64,000 nucleotides of DNA, taken from Escherichia coli 042 (GTDB taxonomy: Bacteria; Pseudomonadota; Gammaproteobacteria; Enterobacterales; Enterobacteriaceae). The position numbers and the translations under genes are program-made. Every line of letters begins with the position of its first letter. Positions within the stretch are counted from its first letter, which is position 1. Below the pieces are notes generated by a model. It was not told the DNA's origin, did not search any database, and worked only from the letters and a program-made list of their open reading frames with translations. The stretch is taken from NCBI RefSeq assembly GCF_000027125.1, contig NC_017626.1. One strand, written 5' to 3'. Below, piece after piece: positions 40,978 to 52,503 of this stretch.

Positions 40978-41739
40978 ATGGAAACCGTTTTTGATGCACT
41001 GAAAGCAATGGGAAAAGCCACGTCGGTAGAACTGGCTGCGCGACTTGATATCAGTCGTGAAGAAGTGCTGAACGAGCTGTGGGAACTTAAAAAGGCTGGC
41101 TTCGTTGATAAAAGCGTATACACCTGGCGTGTGGCTGATAACAACGTTCAGCAGGAACAGCCAGAGCAGGCAGAACTGCCGGAAGAAACCACCACGGCAA
41201 CAGTAGCGAAAATCTCAGAGTGCGATTTAACCGCGACGATTGAACAACGTGGCCCACAAACGGCGGATGAACTGGCTACGTTTTTCGGCACCACATCACG
41301 CAAAGTGGCTTCAACGCTGGCAATGGCAATCAGCAAAGGCCGTCTGATTCGCGTTAATCAGAACGGTAAATTTCGTTACTGCATGCCGGGCGATGATTTA
41401 CCAGCAGAGCCGAAAGCTGCATCGGTAACGGAAACTGATGGTAAAGCCTTTCCTCAACCAGCAGGTGTTGCGTTACCGGGACAGGAAGCTGCAACACAGG
41501 AAGATATTAAAACAGAAACTGTGGCGGACATTGTGCAGTCGTTGCCATCGTTTACCGAAACGCGAGCGGATGACCTCGTTCTGCCATCGCTGCATATGGC
41601 AAACCGCGAACTGCGTCGGGCGAAAAATCATGTCCAGAAGTGGGAACGTGTCTGCGCCGCGCTGCGGGAGCTGAACAAGCACCGGGATATTGTTCGACAG
41701 ATTACTGATTCTTCTCGCTGTGTTGCATCGGAAAAGTGA
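40978..41739 (+). CDS. Phage protein YdaW-like, probable winged-helix DNA-binding
   Basis: ATG 40978 with GGAGGA RBS; 253 aa; two WH-like segments. Confidence 0.55.
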
Positions 41740-41754
41740 TTGCCGGAGGCGCTT

Positions 41755-42171
41755 ATGGCAAAAGTATTTACACAAGAAGAGCGGGAAAAAATCAAGGGAC
41801 AGGTTGTTGAGCTAGTACGCCGGAGTGGGCGCGAGACGTTACGGCAACTGGAAGCCAAGACAGGTGCGACAAGATATCTGATGAGCGTTCTCGCCAGAGA
41901 GCTGGTTGCCAGTGGCGATGTATACAACTCTGGCTACGGGTTATTCCCGTCTGAACAGGCTCGTAAGGACTGGCAAAATGCCCGCAAAAAACTATCTAGG
42001 GCAAAGGTGAAGAAACCATCTGTGGTTGATCCGGACCTTATCTGGTCATTACCTGACGGAGAAATACGTCGTTATGACAGGCACCAAAACATAATTTGCT
42101 GTGAGTGCCGGAAGAGCGAAGTTATGCAGCGCATACTGGCATTTTATCAGAGAAATTTTCGTTATTTATAG
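41755..42171 (+). CDS. Hypothetical phage protein
   Basis: ATG 41755 preceded by GGAGG; 138 aa; no recognised motif. Confidence 0.45.
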   Translation: MAKVFTQEEREKIKGQVVELVRRSGRETLRQLEAKTGATRYLMSVLARELVASGDVYNSGYGLFPSEQARKDWQNARKKLSRAKVKKPSVVDPDLIWSLPDGEIRRYDRHQNIICCECRKSEVMQRILAFYQRNFRYL

Positions 42172-42334
42172 ACGTTACTCGATTAAAGAGCATTAGTTCA
42201 GATGTGAATTGACATTTTCACGGCACAGGATTGAGCTAGCGTGGTTGTCTGCTTTGTGTCAAAAGCAGATATTACCAGATTTAGACATCTATTCCCGATA
42301 GCCCTGCTCTGATGCTACACTCTGTGCTATTTTC

Positions 42335-43021
42335 ATGACCCCAATAAAAATATTTATGACTATTGCTGATTTCAAACGGCCTAAATTGGAGCTCCCAAAC
42401 GGGGCAAACAAACTACTACTGCACTCTTGCTGTGCTCCATGTTCCGGTGAAGTGATGGAGGCGCTTCAGGCCTCGGGAATCGACTATACCATCTTTTTCT
42501 ACAACCCGAACATTCATCCTCAGAAAGAGTATTTAATTCGTAAGGATGAGAATATTCGCTTTGCTGAACAACACGGCGTGCCATTTATTGATGCTGATTA
42601 CGACACAGACAACTGGTTTGAACGTGCCAAAGGAATGGAATGGGAGCCCGAGAGGGGGATCCGTTGTACCATGTGTTTTGACATGCGTTTTGAGCGGACA
42701 GCGCTGTACGCTGCTGAAAATGGTTTCAGTGTGATCAGCAGTTCACTGGGCATTTCACGCTGGAAAAATATGCAGCAGGTTAACGACTGTGGGCGGCGAG
42801 CCGTCGCGCATTATCCGGGCATGGTGTACTGGGATTATAACTGGCGCAAGCAGGGCGGCTCGTCCCGCATGATTGAAATCAGCAAGCGCGAAAAATTCTA
42901 TCAGCAGGAATATTGTGGCTGTGTGTATTCTCTGCGCGATACCAATCTACACCGCAAATCTCAGGGACGCCCTCTTATCAAAATTGGTCAACTCCACTAC
43001 GGTAAAGAAGAGAAGGAGTGA
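42335..43021 (+). CDS. DUF208 / epoxyqueuosine reductase QueH-like protein (putative Fe-S enzyme)
   Basis: 228 aa with Cys motifs [14 protein letters not shown] and EYCGCVYS, as remembered for the QueH family. Confidence 0.55.
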
Positions 43022-43258
43022 TTTTATGGAGCACCTTTCTTATTGATTTCATATTGGCGAGGTAGCGGGAGTTAAGTAAAATTGCTGCGGGTGCTTGAGG
43101 CTATCTGCCTCAGGCATGAACACCAAAAGGCAGATAGAGAAAAGCCCCAGTTAACATTACGCGTCCTGCAAGACGCTTAACATTAATCTGAGGCTCAATC
43201 TATGCTGAACACATGTAGGTTAGCCTCTTACGTGCCGAAAGGCAAGGAGAAGCAGGCT

Positions 43259-43414
43259 ATGAAGCAGCAAAAGGCGATGTTAATCGCCCTGATCGTCATC
43301 TGTTTAACCGTCATAGTGACGGCACTGGTAACGAGGAAAGACCTCTGCGAGGTACGAATCCGAACCGGGCAGACGGAGGTCGCTGTCTTCACAGCTTACG
43401 AACCTGAGGAGTAA
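43259..43414 (+). CDS. hokD: Hok-family membrane toxin (type I toxin)
   Basis: 51 aa MKQQKAMLIALIVICLTVIVTALVTRKDLCEVRIRTGQTEVAVFTAYEPEE matches remembered HokD/RelF; in-frame upstream extension from 43202. Confidence 0.8.
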   Translation: MKQQKAMLIALIVICLTVIVTALVTRKDLCEVRIRTGQTEVAVFTAYEPEE

Positions 43415-43880
43415 GAGACCGGGCGAGGGAGAAATCCCTCGCCACCTCTGATGTATTATGCATCCTCAACGCACCCACACTTAACCAGTTTTGGCGAGTT
43501 TATTTTATCTGTAAATATTTTTATAAAAATAATGCCCACGCACAGCATAAAACAAAAAGTATTACAGATAAAAAAGGAGCGTAATGTGCAGATTTGTTGT
43601 TTTCCATATTTACTCACCTTAATATGATTGATCTTGATAGGATTGTTATTTCAGTGGTTTTCAAATGAGATATTATGGTGATCTGGTAGATTTGCATAAC
43701 ATTAAAATTTAATTTGTTTAACCGCTTTTAATAATAAGCGTTGTTTTTATCCCGGCAATCTGTTGTTTGGTTTTTATTCCATTAAGGTGGGGACTTTACA
43801 CTGGAGCCAGTTTATTTATACTTCATACGTCAGCCTGAACAACTGGCATCTGCTGCACTGCGCCATCGAGAGATTGAGAA

Positions 43881-44480
43881 ATGGCGCATATACAACTGGT
43901 CAAACAAACTTCTTCTGGTTTACTTCTCCCGGCGACGCCGGAGAGTTGCGATTTTCTGCATCAAATCAAAATAGGTGAGTGGATACACGCAGACTTTAAG
44001 CGTGTGCGTAACTACGCATTCCACAAGCGTTTTTTCAAACTCCTGCAACTGGGATTCGATTACTGGACTCCGGTCGGTGGGGCGATCACACCTCGCGAAC
44101 GAGAAATGGTGTTCGGCTTCGTTGATTACCTGTGTGAATCAGTAGGCAGGGAACATACGCCAGCTCTGAGTGATGCCGCGGAACAATATCTGAATACCGT
44201 TGCGACACGCAGAACCCGGGATATGGCATTGCTCAAATCATTTGACGCTTTCCGCGAGTGGGTAACCATTCAGGCCGGATTTTACACCGAGCATTTTTAT
44301 CCTGATGGTAGTCGTGGGCGTCGGGCGAAATCCATCGCGTTTGCGAATATGGACGAAACCGAGTTTCAGCAGGTTTATAAATCTGTACTGAATGTGCTGT
44401 GGAACTGGATTCTGTTCCGTAAATTTTCCTCTCCGGAACAAGTCGAAAATGTGGCCGCGCAGCTACTGGAGTTTGCGTAA
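43881..44480 (+). CDS. Hypothetical nin-region phage protein
   Basis: 199 aa, immediately upstream of YbcO-like gene with stop/start overlap. Confidence 0.5.
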   Translation: MAHIQLVKQTSSGLLLPATPESCDFLHQIKIGEWIHADFKRVRNYAFHKRFFKLLQLGFDYWTPVGGAITPREREMVFGFVDYLCESVGREHTPALSDAAEQYLNTVATRRTRDMALLKSFDAFREWVTIQAGFYTEHFYPDGSRGRRAKSIAFANMDETEFQQVYKSVLNVLWNWILFRKFSSPEQVENVAAQLLEFA

Positions 44481-44770: not shown

Positions 44771-45303
44771 TTTACCCAACAAATACAGGCAAAAGCGGGG
44801 AACACCTTCGTCTCACCACGCTGGAAAGTGTCTGGATTCAGGGAAAACTGCGCATGTGGGGGCGCTGGTCGTATATTGGCGGCGGTAAGACGGGGAATAT
44901 GTTTAACCAGTTGCTGGCGTCAAAAAAATTGACGAAAACAGCCATCAATGAAGCCCTGCGCAGAATGAAAAAAGCGGGAATAGAGAAAGCTGAGCTGGAA
45001 GCGTTTTTGCGAGAGATGATCAACGGCAAGCAAAAGAGCTGGCTGGCGCATTGTACTGATGCAGAGGCACTAAAAATTGATAGTGTTATAGGTGAAGTTC
45101 TGGCGGATCATCCAGGACTACTAAATGTCCTGAGTCAGCGTTATGTGGGGCGAGGGATGAGTAAGAGAAGGATGGCCGAGTTATTAAACGAACAGTACCC
45201 AGAGTGGGCGTTGATTACATGCCGACGTCGTGTTGATCAGTGGTTGCGTGTTGCTGAGTTCATTTTGTATTCACCTATGAGAGAAGCGTTCGATTATGCT
45301 TAA
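44767..45303 (+). CDS. Putative late-gene antiterminator Q
   Basis: 178 aa; last nin-region gene, directly upstream of terminator hairpin, tRNAs and lysis cassette; family assignment from memory only. Confidence 0.5.
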   Translation: MIYPTNTGKSGEHLRLTTLESVWIQGKLRMWGRWSYIGGGKTGNMFNQLLASKKLTKTAINEALRRMKKAGIEKAELEAFLREMINGKQKSWLAHCTDAEALKIDSVIGEVLADHPGLLNVLSQRYVGRGMSKRRMAELLNEQYPEWALITCRRRVDQWLRVAEFILYSPMREAFDYA

Positions 45304-45397
45304 AAAATCATTGCAAAATGAGCCACAAACTGCTTCAATTTCGGTACGCTTCGCATAGCTGTATCGCGAGGCAAATTAAGCGCATGAACTTTAATAC

Positions 45398-45425
45398 AAC
45401 CCGCCATTGAGCGGGTTTTGTTGTT
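45398..45425 (+). terminator. Rho-independent terminator downstream of Q (candidate tR')
   Basis: ACCCGC-CATTGA-GCGGGT hairpin followed by TTTGTTGTTT. Confidence 0.45.
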
Positions 45426-45665
45426 TCTGTGGCGTGATATCAGAAACGACATTTAATAATCGCCTTCAAAATAAATTTGTTTATACATTGTCATGTATAT
45501 TTTAAGTGAAAGTGAATTATTCACATAAAATAAAAACACATAAATAAATTTACATAACTTGACGCAAAGTGTTGTTGCGATTGGAATATTAAATCGTATC
45601 ATCGAAAACGGTTCTGAGGGGGAACTCTTCTTTGCTCGGTGATATCGCTCCCCTGAAGAACCAAT

Positions 45666-45741
<76 letters not shown>

Positions 45742-45744
45742 TAT

Positions 45745-45819
<75 letters not shown>

Positions 45820-46207: not shown

Positions 46208-46595
46208 TTCCTTTCTCAGGACAAAAAAATACACGAGCATCCAGGAATACTCGTGGGACAACGTCCTTTGGATAGCAATTTGCGAGAGGGTGAAAAGTAG
46301 CGCGGTCGTCGGATTAAGACCGCGGGACAAAGTCCATGAAGAAGAATAAGTATCGGTCTCCTTCCGGAGACGAGTTGATATTACTAAGCTTTAAAAATGG
46401 TTTAAATCCTCAGATCAACCTTAATTTCAGATAAGGTTTATTTCATTTTCTCCGCGTCACATCCGACGCACATCACATCAGATAACACCACACAAAAGGC
46501 ATCTGCGGGTGTCTTTGACGGGGTGTTTTTTACGGGCCGCTGGTGGCCATTTTTTGTTTCCATTACACAGCGCCCGCATCTGCGAGGTGGGGGTT

Positions 46596-46811
46596 ATGAA
46601 ATCCATGGATAAGTTAACAACGGGTGTCGCCTATGGCACCTCCGCAGGCAGTGCTGGCTACTGGTTTTTACAGCTGCTCGATAAAGTCACGCCCTCACAG
46701 TGGGCAGCAATAGGTGTGCTGGGTAGCTTGGTATTTGGCCTGCTGACGTACCTGACAAACCTTTATTTCAAGATTAAAGAAGATAAGCGCAAGGCTGCGA
46801 GAGGTGAATAA
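46596..46811 (+). CDS. S: Class II pinholin (phage 21 S21-like) with dual-start motif
   Basis: 71 aa [71 protein letters not shown]; Met1/Met4 dual start; two TM domains. Confidence 0.85.
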
Positions 46812-47308
46812 TGCCTCCATCATTACGAAAAGCCGTTGCTGCTGCTATTGGTGGCGGAGCAATTGCTATAGCATCAGTGTTAATCACTGGCCCAAGTGGT
46901 AACGATGGTCTGGAAGGTGTCAGCTACATACCATACAAAGATATTGTTGGTGTATGGACTGTATGTCACGGGCATACAGGAAAAGACATCATGCTCGGTA
47001 AAACGTATACCAAAGCAGAATGCAAAGCCCTCCTGAATAAAGACCTTGCCACGGTCGCCAGACAAATTAACCCGTACATAAAAGTTGATATACCGGAAAC
47101 AACGCGCGGCGCTCTTTACTCGTTCGTTTACAACGTGGGCGCTGGCAATTTCAGAACATCGACGCTTCTTCGCAAAATAAACCAGGGCGATATCAAAGGC
47201 GCATGTGATCAGCTACGTCGCTGGACATATGCTGGCGGTAAGCAATGGAAAGGTCTCATGACTCGTCGTGAGATTGAGCGTGAAATCTGTTTGTGGGGTC
47301 AGCAATGA
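46811..47308 (+). CDS. R: SAR (signal-anchor-release) endolysin, lysozyme family (R21-like)
   Basis: 165 aa; Gly/Ala-rich N-terminal SAR domain ([20 protein letters not shown]) then lysozyme-like domain; TAATG overlap with holin. Confidence 0.85.
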
Positions 47309-47769
47309 ACAGAGTAACCGCGATTATCTCCGCTCTGGTTATCTGCATCATCGTCTGCCTGTCATGGGCTGTTAATCATTACCGTGATAATGCCATTACC
47401 TACAAAGCGCAACGCGATAATGTGAAGGAAAAACTCAACCAGGCGACCGCAATCATTACTGACATGCAGATACGCCAGCGTGATGTTGCTGCACTCGATG
47501 CAAAATACCTGAAGGAGTTAGCTGATGCGAAAGCTGAAAATGATGCTCTGCGTGATGATGTTGCCGCTGGTCGTCGTCGGTTGCACATCAAAGCAGTCTG
47601 TCCGTCCGTGCGTGAAGCCACCATCGCCTCCAGCGTGGATAATGCAGTCTCCCCCAGACTGGCAGACACCGCTGAACGGGATTATTTCACCCTCCGGGAA
47701 CGACTGGTAATGATGCAGGCCCAACTTGAAGGTGCTCAGCAATACATAACCGAACAGTGTTTAAAGTAA
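47305..47769 (+). CDS. Rz: Spanin inner-membrane subunit (Rz-like)
   Basis: 154 aa from [21 protein letters not shown]..., N-terminal TM plus coiled-coil; ATGA overlap with endolysin. Confidence 0.75.
47525..47710 (+). CDS. Rz1: Spanin outer-membrane lipoprotein subunit (Rz1-like), embedded in Rz in another frame
   Basis: 61 aa, signal peptide with lipobox VVGC, proline-rich mature region. Confidence 0.65.
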
Positions 47770-47906
47770 AATCTTAACTACAATATGATTCATTTTGATG
47801 ATTGTTTCATAAGGAACAGTGAAGTAAGATCTAAGATGAGTTAAATTTTATACAGTATAATCATAATGTTGCAGCAAGGTGGTTATAATTGAAAGAATAT
47901 TTAGAT

Positions 47907-49364
47907 ATGAATACATCTCATGTAAGAGTTGTTACTCATATGTGTGGGTTCCTGGTTTGGCTCTATAGTCTTTCAATGTTGCCACCAATGGTTGTAGCAT
48001 TGTTTTATAAAGAAAAAAGCCTGTTCGTTTTCTTTATAACTTTCGTTATATTTTTTTGCATTGGTGGCGGAGCGTGGTATACAACTAAGAAATCTGGTAT
48101 TCAATTACGTACCCGTGATGGGTTTATTATAATTGTAATGTTTTGGATTTTGTTTTCTGTTATTAGTGCATTCCCTTTATGGATTGACTCAGAACTTAAT
48201 TTAACGTTTATTGATGCTCTATTTGAAGGGGTTTCTGGAATAACAACAACAGGAGCAACTGTAATTGATGATGTTAGTTCATTACCTCGGGCATATTTGT
48301 ACTATCGGTCACAGTTAAATTTTATAGGTGGCTTAGGAGTTATTGTTCTGGCGGTTGCTGTATTGCCATTATTGGGTATTGGTGGTGCAAAGCTTTATCA
48401 GTCAGAAATGCCAGGGCCATTTAAGGATGACAAACTTACTCCCCGCCTGGCCGATACGTCACGGACACTTTGGATAACTTATTCTTTATTAGGTATTGCT
48501 TGTATTGTCTGTTATAGACTTGCAGGAATGCCTTTGTTTGATGCTATTTGTCACGGGATATCCACAGTTTCGCTTGGTGGTTTCTCAACTCATAGCGAGA
48601 GTATCGGATATTTTAATAACTATTTGGTTGAGCTGGTGGCTGGTTCTTTTTCCCTGCTATCGGCTTTCAACTTCACCCTTTGGTATATTGTTATTAGCAG
48701 GAAAACGTTAAAACCTTTAATCAGAGATATTGAACTTCGTTTCTTTCTGTTAATAGCCTTAGGGGTGATCATTGTTACCTCTTTCCAGGTCTGGCATATA
48801 GGTATGTATGACTTGCCTGGAAGTTTTATTCATTCGTTTTTTCTTGCCAGCTCCATGCTCACTGATAATGGTTTAGCTACGCAGGATTACGCAAACTGGC
48901 CCACGCACACGATAGTGTTTTTGCTGTTGTCAAGTTTCTTTGGGGGATGTATAGGTTCAACTTGTGGTGGAATTAAGTCACTTCGATTTCTTATACTTTT
49001 CAAACAAAGCAAACACGAGATAAACCAGCTTTCTCATCCCAGAGCGTTGTTGAGTGTAAATGTAGGAGGGAAGATAGTTACAGATCGTGTAATGAGGTCT
49101 GTATGGAGTTTCTTTTTTCTTTATACTCTCTTCACGGTGTTTTTTATACTGGTGTTAAATGGTATGGGATATGATTTTCTTACATCATTTGCAACAGTGG
49201 CTGCATGTATTAATAATATGGGATTAGGTTTTGGGGCTACTGCATCGTCATTCGGAGTGCTTAATGACATTGCAAAATATTTAATGTGCATAGCTATGAT
49301 TCTTGGTCGCCTTGAAATTTATCCTGTTATTATATTGTTTTCAGGTTTTTTTTGGCGCTCCTAA
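47907..49364 (+). CDS. trkG: Potassium uptake protein TrkG (TrkH family), prophage moron
   Basis: 485 aa from MNTSHVRVVTHMCGFLVWLYSL...; visibly AT-rich relative to flanks. Confidence 0.9.
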   Translation: MNTSHVRVVTHMCGFLVWLYSLSMLPPMVVALFYKEKSLFVFFITFVIFFCIGGGAWYTTKKSGIQLRTRDGFIIIVMFWILFSVISAFPLWIDSELNLTFIDALFEGVSGITTTGATVIDDVSSLPRAYLYYRSQLNFIGGLGVIVLAVAVLPLLGIGGAKLYQSEMPGPFKDDKLTPRLADTSRTLWITYSLLGIACIVCYRLAGMPLFDAICHGISTVSLGGFSTHSESIGYFNNYLVELVAGSFSLLSAFNFTLWYIVISRKTLKPLIRDIELRFFLLIALGVIIVTSFQVWHIGMYDLPGSFIHSFFLASSMLTDNGLATQDYANWPTHTIVFLLLSSFFGGCIGSTCGGIKSLRFLILFKQSKHEINQLSHPRALLSVNVGGKIVTDRVMRSVWSFFFLYTLFTVFFILVLNGMGYDFLTSFATVAACINNMGLGFGATASSFGVLNDIAKYLMCIAMILGRLEIYPVIILFSGFFWRS

Positions 49365-49501
49365 TATATGGCTGATTTATAATTGTGAGTTTAATATTAT
49401 ATTGACTCACTCATTGATCCAATACCTAACTTTACCAGCAACACCTCCGCCCCCAGTAGCACTGGCTGCTGGGGTGCGTTTTATTCATAAAGCAAGGCTG
49501 T

Positions 49502-50293
49502 ATGAGCGAGAAATTGAAGATCGTCTATCGCCCTTTACAAGAACTGTCTCCGTATGCACACAACGCCAGGACACACAGCCCTGAGCAGGTGGCACAACTG
49601 GTAGAAAGCATTAAGCAATTCGGCTGGACTAATCCGGTGCTGATTGATGAAAAGGGCGAAATTATTGCTGGTCACGGTCGCGTTATGGCGGCTGAAGTGC
49701 TCAAAATGGATTCCATTCCGGTCATCGTTCTGTCTGGTTTGATGGATGATCAGAAAAAGGCGTACCGCCTGGCAGATAATCGCCTGCCGCTGAACGCTGG
49801 CTGGGATGAAGAACTGTTGCGGATGGAGCTGTCGGAGCTAATCAATGCTGATTTTGATATCTCCCTGACAGGATTCAGCCCGACAGAAATTGATGAACTG
49901 TTGACGGATGTTTTGCCAGGTACAGGAAATGAGGAGGAGCCGTACACGACGAAAATTGATACGCCTGTTTATGAGCCGTCGGGCGATAAACCGGACATCA
50001 GTGAGCTGTACGACGATACGAAAACTCAGGAGCTGATCAGCCGGATACGTTCGGCGTCCCTTGAGCCCGATATCGAAAAATTCCTCCTGTGCGCGGCAGA
50101 ACGCCACACGGTGTTTAATTTCAGCAGAATTGCGGACTATTACGCTCACGCCCCCGCTGAAATTCAGTGTTTTTTCGAGGAGTCGGCGCTGGTGATCATT
50201 GATTATCAGCAGGCTATTGAAAATGGATTTGTCCGGATGACGCAGCGCATGGTGGAGATCATGCATGGTGGTGAGGAGGAGGAATATGCGTGA
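49502..50293 (+). CDS. ParB-like nuclease domain protein (apparently full-length counterpart of the K-12 ynaK remnant)
   Basis: 263 aa; N-terminal ParB/Srx-like domain (LSPYAHNARTHSPEQV...GHGRVMAA). Confidence 0.65.
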   Translation: MSEKLKIVYRPLQELSPYAHNARTHSPEQVAQLVESIKQFGWTNPVLIDEKGEIIAGHGRVMAAEVLKMDSIPVIVLSGLMDDQKKAYRLADNRLPLNAGWDEELLRMELSELINADFDISLTGFSPTEIDELLTDVLPGTGNEEEPYTTKIDTPVYEPSGDKPDISELYDDTKTQELISRIRSASLEPDIEKFLLCAAERHTVFNFSRIADYYAHAPAEIQCFFEESALVIIDYQQAIENGFVRMTQRMVEIMHGGEEEEYA

Positions 50294-51218
50294 TGATTTT
50301 TGCGCCTTTATTCTGACTCACGGGCGACCGGACAAAGTTCTGACTTACCGGACGTTGCGTCGTGCTGGCTATACCGGGAAAATTTTTATCGTTGTTGATG
50401 ATGAAGATAAGACACGGCATCAGTACATGGCTGAATTTGGTGAACAGGTGCTGGTGTTTTCCAAAGCCGATATCGCCAGTCGTTTTGACGAAGCCGATAA
50501 TTTCGGTGACCGCCGCTCAATTTTTTACGCCCGTAATGCCTGTTTCGACCTGGCAAAACTGGTCGGGTGTAAATACTTCATTCAGCTCGATGATGATTAT
50601 CACGAGTTCCAGTTTCGGGTGGATCGCAACTATGACCAGGCCTATTTTCCGATAAGGAAACTGGATGCGATCCTTTCTGAAATGCTGGCGTACTACGAAT
50701 CAATACCTGCTCTTTCCATCGCTATGTCGCAGGGCGGGGATTTTCTTGGTGACAATGGCGGCCATGCTTCGTGGGTGAAACGCAAGGCAATGAACAGCTT
50801 TATCTGTTCGGTTGATCGACCGTTCTCATTCATGGGGCGCATTAACGAGGATGTGAATACGTACACGAATCTCGGTCGCTGTGGTGAATTGTTTATGACG
50901 ATCGGTGCTGTCCAGTTAGGGCAGAAACAGACGCAGAAAAACAGCGGCGGAATGACCGAGCTGTATCTGGATTCCGGAACCTACGTTAAAAGTTTTTACT
51001 CCGTCATGTATGCGCCGTCGTGCGTAAAAATCTCACTGATGGGTGCCAGCCATAAACGCATTCACCATCAGGTCACCTGGAACAACGCTGCAGTAAAAAT
51101 CCTTCACGAAAAATACAGGAAGAAGACACCCTGCATATCAATAGGGGTGACAAATGATTCCATATTCGAAAGTCGAGTCTCTGGCAGCGTGCCGGATGAC
51201 TGCACAACAAATCGCTGA
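50286..51218 (+). CDS. Uncharacterised phage protein with DxD-type motif (possible GT-A-fold nucleotide-sugar transferase)
   Basis: ATG 50286 after GAGGAGG RBS; 310 aa; FIQLDDDYHE and N-terminal AFILTHGRPDKV resemble GT-A signatures; assignment tentative. Confidence 0.45.
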   Translation: MRDDFCAFILTHGRPDKVLTYRTLRRAGYTGKIFIVVDDEDKTRHQYMAEFGEQVLVFSKADIASRFDEADNFGDRRSIFYARNACFDLAKLVGCKYFIQLDDDYHEFQFRVDRNYDQAYFPIRKLDAILSEMLAYYESIPALSIAMSQGGDFLGDNGGHASWVKRKAMNSFICSVDRPFSFMGRINEDVNTYTNLGRCGELFMTIGAVQLGQKQTQKNSGGMTELYLDSGTYVKSFYSVMYAPSCVKISLMGASHKRIHHQVTWNNAAVKILHEKYRKKTPCISIGVTNDSIFESRVSGSVPDDCTTNR

Positions 51219-51408: not shown

Positions 51409-52503
51409 ATGAGCAGACCGGACTGGGGGGCGTTGCAGCAGGAGTATATTGCTGAATACACCCGCTCCGGTATATCTCCGGTGGCATGGTGTGAAGCAAG
51501 GGGACTGAATTACGCAACAGCCCGTCGTTACATCAAAAAACCTCCGAAAAATGCGCAGACAGAAATGCGCAAAACTGCGCAAAAAAGTGCGCAGAAAAAA
51601 TCTGCGCAGACTGCACAAAAGCGGAACGAAAAATCTCAGGAAAAAAAGCCAGTATTCGATGCGGGCCTGAATGAGGGCGACGCGGAGGAATTTTCGTTCT
51701 GTCCCGATGAATTCGGCATTTCTGACCAGCAGGCTAAGTTTGCGATGCTTGTTGCTCAGGGGAAAAAGCCGACAGAGGCGTACCGACTAGCCGGTTATGA
51801 GGGGCAAGGTGCGACAGCTAACAGCAACGCCAGTCGTATGCTTAGAAATGCCAGGGTTTTTCGCGCTATCAGCTACTTCCGCAATCAGTACCAGAAACGC
51901 TATACCGCAGACCTGGATTTACTGGTGAGTCAGTTGATGGCCATTGTCCTGGCCGACCCCAATCAGCTTGCACAATTTCGCCGTGTTAACTGCCGTTATT
52001 GCTGGGGCGAGAATCATCTCTACCAGTGGCGCGATATAGCAGAATTCGACAAGGCAGCGGCGCAGGCTTCCAGAGATGGCAAACCCGAACCGGAATATGG
52101 AGGCCTCGGCTTTGTTGATAACGCCATACCCAATCCGGACTGCCCGAAGTGCTGCGGTGAGGGAACGGGACAGCTTTATATGGCTGATACCACTCTGCTT
52201 GATGGGGATGCGCGGCAATTATATGCAGGGGCAAAACTCGGAAAATTCGGCGTTGAGATCCTGCTGGAGGATAAGGCTGCCGCCCGGCGTGAATTGTTGC
52301 GTTTGCTTTCTGCTGGCGGGGCTTTATGTGCAGATAAGCGGCTACAGGAACTGGAAATTGAACGACGCAGAATGGAAAACCAGAAGCTGCGCAAAGAGAT
52401 CGAAACGGTGGAAGATAATGAACATCCCCAGCCTGTGGCGATCAATATTAATGTGGTTGATGCCAGAGTAAGGAGTGATGAAGATGATCTCTCCGACGCT
52501 TAA
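51409..52503 (+). CDS. Terminase small subunit (putative)
   Basis: 364 aa, N-terminal HTH (GISPVAWCEARGLNYATARRYIKK), directly upstream of terminase large subunit. Confidence 0.6.
   Translation: MSRPDWGALQQEYIAEYTRSGISPVAWCEARGLNYATARRYIKKPPKNAQTEMRKTAQKSAQKKSAQTAQKRNEKSQEKKPVFDAGLNEGDAEEFSFCPDEFGISDQQAKFAMLVAQGKKPTEAYRLAGYEGQGATANSNASRMLRNARVFRAISYFRNQYQKRYTADLDLLVSQLMAIVLADPNQLAQFRRVNCRYCWGENHLYQWRDIAEFDKAAAQASRDGKPEPEYGGLGFVDNAIPNPDCPKCCGEGTGQLYMADTTLLDGDARQLYAGAKLGKFGVEILLEDKAAARRELLRLLSAGGALCADKRLQELEIERRRMENQKLRKEIETVEDNEHPQPVAININVVDARVRSDEDDLSDA

Follow-up and report, generated by a model that had tools for sequence, protein, structure and literature searches.

Why does a potassium transporter gene stand between the lysis and packaging genes of a prophage, and did it arrive with expression signals of its own? 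We addressed this question for trkG in the 64-kb stretch of Escherichia coli DNA analysed here (the window). Our reading is that positions 47770–49431 would be the trkG cassette of a Rac-type lambdoid prophage lying beside ttcA. The cassette would be of foreign origin, would be transcribed both from its own promoter and with the late genes, and would bring the host a modest benefit. We give this account as a whole a probability of about 0.93. Its core, a foreign and AT-rich trkG with its own promoter and dampened by H-NS, is already known from the near-identical K-12 copy. In Rac, trkG is a textbook case of a prophage-borne, AT-rich, H-NS-dampened duplicate of a core function, and it has little significance beyond annotation. 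In the window, the gene belongs to what appears to be a complete Rac-type prophage, unlike the decayed K-12 remnant, so that its late-operon position between lysis and packaging genes is evident. The small additions made here are a right boundary of the cargo near 49432, the placing of a downstream hairpin in shared junction DNA, sibling prophages that lack trkG, a chromosomal TrkG clade and a possible TTG start codon.

The TrkG protein and the prophage that carries its gene

The trkG gene occupies 47907–49364 on the plus strand and is annotated as trkG in RefSeq, with a product of 485 aa. The product matched Pfam PF02386 with an E value of 1.8e-143 and 479 bits (cut-off, 27) over profile positions 3–500 of 502. 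It also passed NCBIfam TIGR00933 with 413.9 bits (cut-off, 331.15). Residues 7–485 were aligned to residues 4–485 of the solved Vibrio parahaemolyticus TrkH structures 4j9u and 3pjz (E = 6e-121). The earlier note had proposed a TrkH-family potassium transporter gene, and both family models and this full-length alignment confirmed it. The score against the TrkH equivalog model NF008020 was 453.1 bits, below the cut-off of 866, indicating that TrkG is a paralogue and not the TrkH orthologue. G322, the third P-loop pore glycine, and D327 are both present in TrkG (...TDNGLATQD...); these two residues have been linked to the Na+ dependence of TrkG (PMC9898762).

The annotated start codon is the ATG at 47907. 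An in-frame TTG at 47889–47891 lies six codons 5' of it, and would give an ORF at 47889–49364 of 491 aa. This TTG is preceded by AAGGTGG at 47877–47883. The 491-aa homologues of Pectobacterium (TTG) and Enterobacter (GTG) begin at the codon that corresponds to this TTG, and their codon 7 is not ATG. The E. fergusonii homologue retains GGAGGT followed by TTG at the upstream start position. On this comparison, the true N-terminus of TrkG may be the TTG at 47889, and the annotated 485-aa form would then be 6 residues too short.

The location between the lysis and packaging modules, as first proposed, was upheld by the genes on both sides. Upstream of trkG are essD, encoding the holin (46596–46811), and rrrD, encoding the endolysin (46811–47308), both identified from the ORF list and the APEC O1 annotation. 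They are followed by Rz, encoding the i-spanin (47305–47769, plus strand), which was identified from the ORF list, the APEC O1 RefSeq annotation and a match to Pfam Phage_lysis PF03245 (E = 2.6e-49). The ORF of the Rz1 lipoprotein (47525–47710) is embedded in Rz. Rz closes the lysis cassette and is the left neighbour of trkG. The right neighbour is ynaK (49502–50293, plus strand), which encodes a ParB_N domain protein (PF02195, E = 2.3e-6) and is annotated as ynaK in many genomes. It heads a block in which the gene of a TAGT-family glycosyltransferase (50286–51218) follows, with terS and terL, the genes of the small and large terminase subunits, downstream of it. No trkA gene was found near trkG in the 64-kb window.

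The prophage adjoins dbpA–ttcA, and its left end has the order dbpA–ttcA–intR–xisR as in Rac. It also contains recE/recT, kilR and sieB. A Q-like gene, tRNAs, holin and endolysin genes, an intact Rz, a full ynaK, the TAGT gene, terminase genes, and head and tail genes are all present. From this gene content, the prophage looks like a full-length Rac-type element integrated beside ttcA. At 47600–49600, a single base in 2 kb separates the window from APEC O1 and several other strains in which the gene is named trkG by RefSeq. Positions 43881–64000 are 99.7% identical to APEC O1, and the early prophage region is mosaic, with 84–98% identity.

Several other features of the prophage were observed. 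The terS gene (51409–52503) is intact and encodes 364 aa; in APEC O1, a T at the equivalent of 51607 creates a stop codon, and RefSeq lists a pseudogene. Because terS is intact here, the prophage may have retained the ability to package DNA. Just 5' of terS, ynaK is paired with an overlapping PF20691 gene (TET-associated glycosyltransferase, E = 6.5e-35), the two together spanning 49502–51218. The pair stays together even in relatives with about 50% identity (L056–L065), and no TET/JBP dioxygenase gene is adjacent to it. It could be a DNA-modification or packaging-associated module. The stretch at about 41400–43400, which separates the replication genes from the nin-like region, encodes a hok/gef toxin, a doc-family toxin and a QueH-like epoxyqueuosine reductase, all assigned by similarity to the APEC O1 annotation. 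Two tRNA genes, tRNA-Thr(UGU) and tRNA-Gly(UCC), are located at 45666–45819 between the Q-like gene and the holin gene. The UCC anticodon is expected to read GGA. GGA makes up 31% of the glycine codons of trkG and 18% of those in flanking genes, perhaps a coincidence with the tRNA-Gly(UCC).

Base composition and limits of the trkG cassette

The GC content of trkG is 0.379 and its GC3 is 0.321. The 22 neighbouring late genes have GC contents of 0.446–0.518 and GC3 values of 0.409–0.572, and thus trkG is below every one of them on both counts. With sliding windows of 1458 bp over the 64 kb, only 0.54% were as AT-rich as trkG, and all of these overlapped the trkG locus. The lowest value in the whole 64 kb, 0.367, came from the 1458-bp window that starts at 47761. 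Synonymous codon usage was also different between trkG and its flanks (chi2 = 110.9, df = 41, p = 2e-8). ATA and TTA each occur 35 times per 1000 codons in trkG and 9 times per 1000 in the flanks, a difference of about fourfold. The earlier note had described the gene as visibly more AT-rich than the flanking phage genes and had named sliding-window GC and codon usage as the check; both differed clearly from the flanks. Shorter AT-rich dips (GC 0.35–0.41) were observed at 42000–42400, 43400–44000 and 45200–45800, mostly in intergenic DNA or small ORFs. No other dip in the prophage is as long or as deep as that of the trkG region.

The many Ile, Leu and Phe residues of a polytopic membrane protein might by themselves make its gene AT-rich, in which case the composition of trkG would be uninformative on foreign origin. 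The GC content at second codon positions (0.397) is close to that of flanking genes, as this explanation would have it. When TrkG was re-encoded with the codon preferences of the flanks, the GC content already fell from about 0.48 to 0.449. However, the observed value of 0.379 is still lower; this value and the GC3 are below those of all neighbouring late genes, and synonymous codon usage differs from the flanks. Amino-acid composition accounts for roughly a third of the GC deficit, and codon choice accounts for the rest. The non-coding spacers around trkG are even more AT-rich than the gene (0.255 and 0.269), and the step in GC content coincides with a homology breakpoint, described below. 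In addition, a GC content of 53% has been reported for the core paralogue trkH (PMC9898762). Amino-acid composition as the sole cause of the AT-richness is therefore largely refuted by GC3 and spacer composition, and we consider it scarcely credible. Foreign origin is the reading we retain, and it agrees with the published view of the K-12 gene. Tanudjaja et al. (2022, PMC9898762) compared the GC contents of trkG (38%) and trkH (53%) and considered trkG a foreign, phage-acquired gene.

AT-rich spacers had been proposed on both sides of trkG. The upstream spacer (47770–47906, plus strand; 137 bp) has a GC content of 0.255 and fits this description. The downstream spacer does so only in part, as it splits into an AT-rich piece at 49365–49431 (plus strand; GC 0.269) and a piece at 49432–49501 with a GC content of 0.543. 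The position of this step was compared with prophages that lack trkG. In many loci without trkG (e.g., L004–L010 and L083, the last on the chromosome of E. coli SC418), the block ynaK–TAGT–terS is retained at 92–97% DNA identity. Some of these siblings, including L008, L009 and that of SC418, have the same Q-like gene and tRNA pair. Beside ynaK they carry another lysis cassette in place of essD–rrrD–Rz–trkG; it consists of two holins, a GH108 endolysin and small spanin-like ORFs (L008, 3790–5600; L083, 2865–4412). Homology between the window and these siblings ends at 46562 and restarts at 49432 or 49448. The restart coincides with the sharp GC step from 0.269 to 0.543 at 49431/49432. As the homology breakpoint and the GC step are at the same place, we assigned 47770–49431, 1662 bp, to trkG-specific DNA; the 3' end of this segment was set by both. 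Its overall GC content is 0.365, against 0.47–0.49 in the flanks.

Of 5426 complete E. coli genomes, 1550 contained the segment 47770–49431, usually in one place only (median, 1 place per genome; maximum, 2). It was at least 95% identical in all but 19 of the 1554 matching E. coli records. Ten phage genome records contain the cassette as well. When viral contigs were scanned with YnaK, 79 loci were obtained, 20 of which had the order Rz–trkG–ynaK. In the 16 viral contigs with matching cassette coordinates, divergence from the window was at most 1.4%. The Rz proteins of trkG-bearing loci were 83–100% identical. We then searched the 5426 E. coli genomes for a direct junction of Rz and ynaK, using a 600-bp query made of the last 300 bp of Rz and the first 300 bp of ynaK and requiring both halves; none was found. 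A simple insertion event therefore could not be reconstructed.

Transcription signals around trkG

The upstream spacer is presumed to be the site of the sigma-70 promoter of trkG and of H-NS binding. Two exact TATAAT hexamers occur in this spacer (47856–47861 and 47884–47889), neither with a good −35 element. A promoter scan also gave the match TTTAAA-18-TATGAT at 47760–47789. The consensus sigma-70 scan of 47000–50000 returned 6 sites, against 7.2 expected from shuffles, and supported no particular promoter. When the H-NS high-affinity motif TCGATAAATT was searched with up to 2 mismatches, the upstream spacer had no match, and the whole of 47770–49431 had 4 weak matches with 2 mismatches each.

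The spacer differs from that of K-12 at 2 of 137 positions, and published work has dealt with the K-12 copy. In a genomic SELEX study, Yamamoto et al. (2018, PMC5811629) assigned to trkG a constitutive RpoD promoter, which they said had entered Rac with the gene. A trkG promoter fragment of K-12 drove luciferase (PMC9898762). In the same work, qRT-PCR showed that trkG mRNA was increased in hns and hns stpA mutants of K-12; the gene was not fully silenced, and earlier ChIP-chip data were cited. The earlier note had credited trkG with its own expression signals. The promoter reported for the near-identical K-12 spacer (PMC9898762, PMC5811629) supports this claim for the upstream side; the downstream hairpin is not specific to the cargo.

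The hairpin had been placed at about 49,441–49,475. It is real and close to that position, at 49448–49478 on the plus strand, and it has a folding energy of −25.2 kcal/mol (z = −4.5; 0 of 200 shuffles were as stable). A short U-tract (UUUUAUU) follows, and by terminator scan and folding the whole element (49448–49485) looks like an intrinsic terminator. It lies to the right of the breakpoint near 49432, outside the AT-rich cargo and in DNA of normal GC content. The U-tract and part of the stem are homologous to trkG-less phages, as indicated by alignment with L008, L009, L006, L004, L036 and L055. In the siblings, the equivalent site folds weakly (−14.6 kcal/mol, z = −0.5) and is followed by U6. 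Because trkG-less siblings share this DNA, the hairpin could not be regarded as one of the signals brought in by the cargo. From these alignments it appears to be a junction element upstream of ynaK and is not demonstrably trkG's own terminator, although it may end transcripts of the local trkG promoter. A small hairpin, GTGAGT...ACTCAC at 49385–49410, falls within the AT-rich cargo DNA, but no U-tract follows it.

These data can be combined into a working model. TrkG would be the membrane subunit of a Trk K+ uptake system, Na+-dependent and working with host-encoded TrkA; in K-12, K+ uptake by TrkG depends on TrkA (PMC9898762, PMC5811629). Judged by composition, the donor was probably more AT-rich, and trkG would have been inserted directly after Rz/Rz1 and before the ynaK–terminase block. 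In the lysogen, by analogy with the K-12 literature, a constitutive sigma-70 promoter in the 137-bp spacer would transcribe trkG, dampened but not silenced by H-NS/StpA. During lytic growth, gene order suggests that trkG would be within the Q-dependent late unit, where antiterminated polymerase would transcribe it as well. Transcription that starts at the local promoter would probably halt at the hairpin and U-tract (49448–49485), and antiterminated late transcription would pass through. In lambdoid phages, Q-modified transcription is expected to read through such a hairpin. The high conservation of the cassette while its neighbours recombine would fit retention for a modest host benefit.

The role of trkG and its comparison with known systems

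The earlier note regarded trkG as a horizontally acquired cargo that benefits the host. Foreign composition and the K-12 literature agree with acquisition; the benefit is modest and weakly documented (PMC9898762). In K-12, K+ uptake by TrkG needs Na+, and TrkG also imports Na+. Its activity is lower than that of TrkH, yet it is able to replace TrkH, and it backs up TrkH only when Na+ is present. Deletion of trkG altered growth in no stress condition that was found (all PMC9898762). Krishnamurthi et al. (2017, PMC5700373) listed trkG and recE among the few well-conserved genes of Rac.

The lack of a growth phenotype of the K-12 deletion also allows the gene to be viewed from the side of the phage. 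TrkG might be kept mainly because, made late, it alters K+/Na+ flux or membrane potential and so serves late synthesis or holin triggering, with any benefit to the lysogen being secondary. The gene lies between the lysis and packaging genes in the same orientation as both, with no strong terminator ahead of it, and intact phage records carry it. However, siblings with the same Q region and the same ynaK–terminase block manage without trkG. The defective Rac of K-12 has lost the late promoter region, holin, endolysin and head genes and still conserves trkG, and the promoter at trkG is constitutive and of host type (PMC5811629). Whichever holin and endolysin are present, the gene always follows directly on an Rz/Rz1 pair, at a constant distance of 137 bp, but common descent explains this linkage more simply. 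We consider retention mainly for the phage very unlikely. Another proposal ties trkG to the lytic programme, instead of seeing in it a simple lysogenic-conversion gene, in that a late-made, Na+-coupled K+ transporter would shift membrane potential or ions and thereby change holin timing or burst size; separately, it places the N-terminus of TrkG possibly at TTG 47889. Its lytic part derives from the position of the gene, and the proposal as a whole appears very unlikely.

The closest known system is trkG of the K-12 Rac prophage (b1363). The two proteins are identical at 481 of 485 residues, the substitutions being I268L, H304P, S330N and C458Y. The genes differ at 18 nucleotides, 14 of them at third codon positions, and the amino acid is altered in just 4 codons. 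K-12 Rac has the same order, rzpR/rzoR–trkG–ynaK, the same two 137-bp spacers (~99% identical), the same hairpin and the same integration site beside ttcA. A difference is that K-12 Rac is deleted on both sides of trkG, its rzpR is a pseudogene and its ynaK is truncated, whereas the prophage in the window looks full-length.

TrkH, which is encoded in the core genome and structurally known from V. parahaemolyticus (3pjz, 4j9u), belongs to the same family; as a paralogue below the NF008020 cut-off, TrkG differs from it in the published properties of Na+-dependent K+ uptake, Na+ uptake, lower activity and control by H-NS (PMC9898762). Homologues of the TrkG clade with 60–79% identity over the full length were found in E. 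fergusonii, Citrobacter, Pectobacterium, Pantoea, Enterobacter, Leclercia, Cronobacter, Buttiauxella, Serratia and Xenorhabdus. The three loci examined (E. fergusonii, Pectobacterium and Enterobacter) have chromosomal neighbourhoods that are not phage-like, and their locations differ from one another. The GC contents of these genes are nearer to those of their hosts than is the case for trkG: 0.424 in E. fergusonii, 0.428 in Pectobacterium (flanks ~0.50) and 0.567 in Enterobacter (flanks ~0.58). No donor was found among the closest non-E. coli homologues (70–79% identity), which are chromosomal and less AT-rich than trkG; for a donor, they are too distant or not AT-rich enough. The chromosomal paralogues share with prophage TrkG the N-terminal region and the position of the upstream non-ATG start. 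By these sequence relationships, prophage TrkG belongs to an enterobacterial paralogue clade, and its gene is more AT-rich than that of any relative examined.

As a prophage gene, trkG can be compared with the morons of lambdoid phages (Hendrix/Juhala). A lambdoid moron is a single non-essential gene of deviant composition at the lysis–packaging junction, with its own promoter for expression from the repressed prophage and a terminator-like hairpin behind it. In lambda, bor is located just downstream of Rz, and DLP12 has borD. The deviant composition and the place at this junction are shared by trkG, which is likewise a single non-essential gene. In contrast to bor-type morons, the flanks of trkG were not found adjacent to each other in any relative, and its hairpin is not specific to the cargo. 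It also differs from them in lying on the late-operon strand, and its product is a large transporter of a housekeeping type where theirs are small surface or virulence factors.
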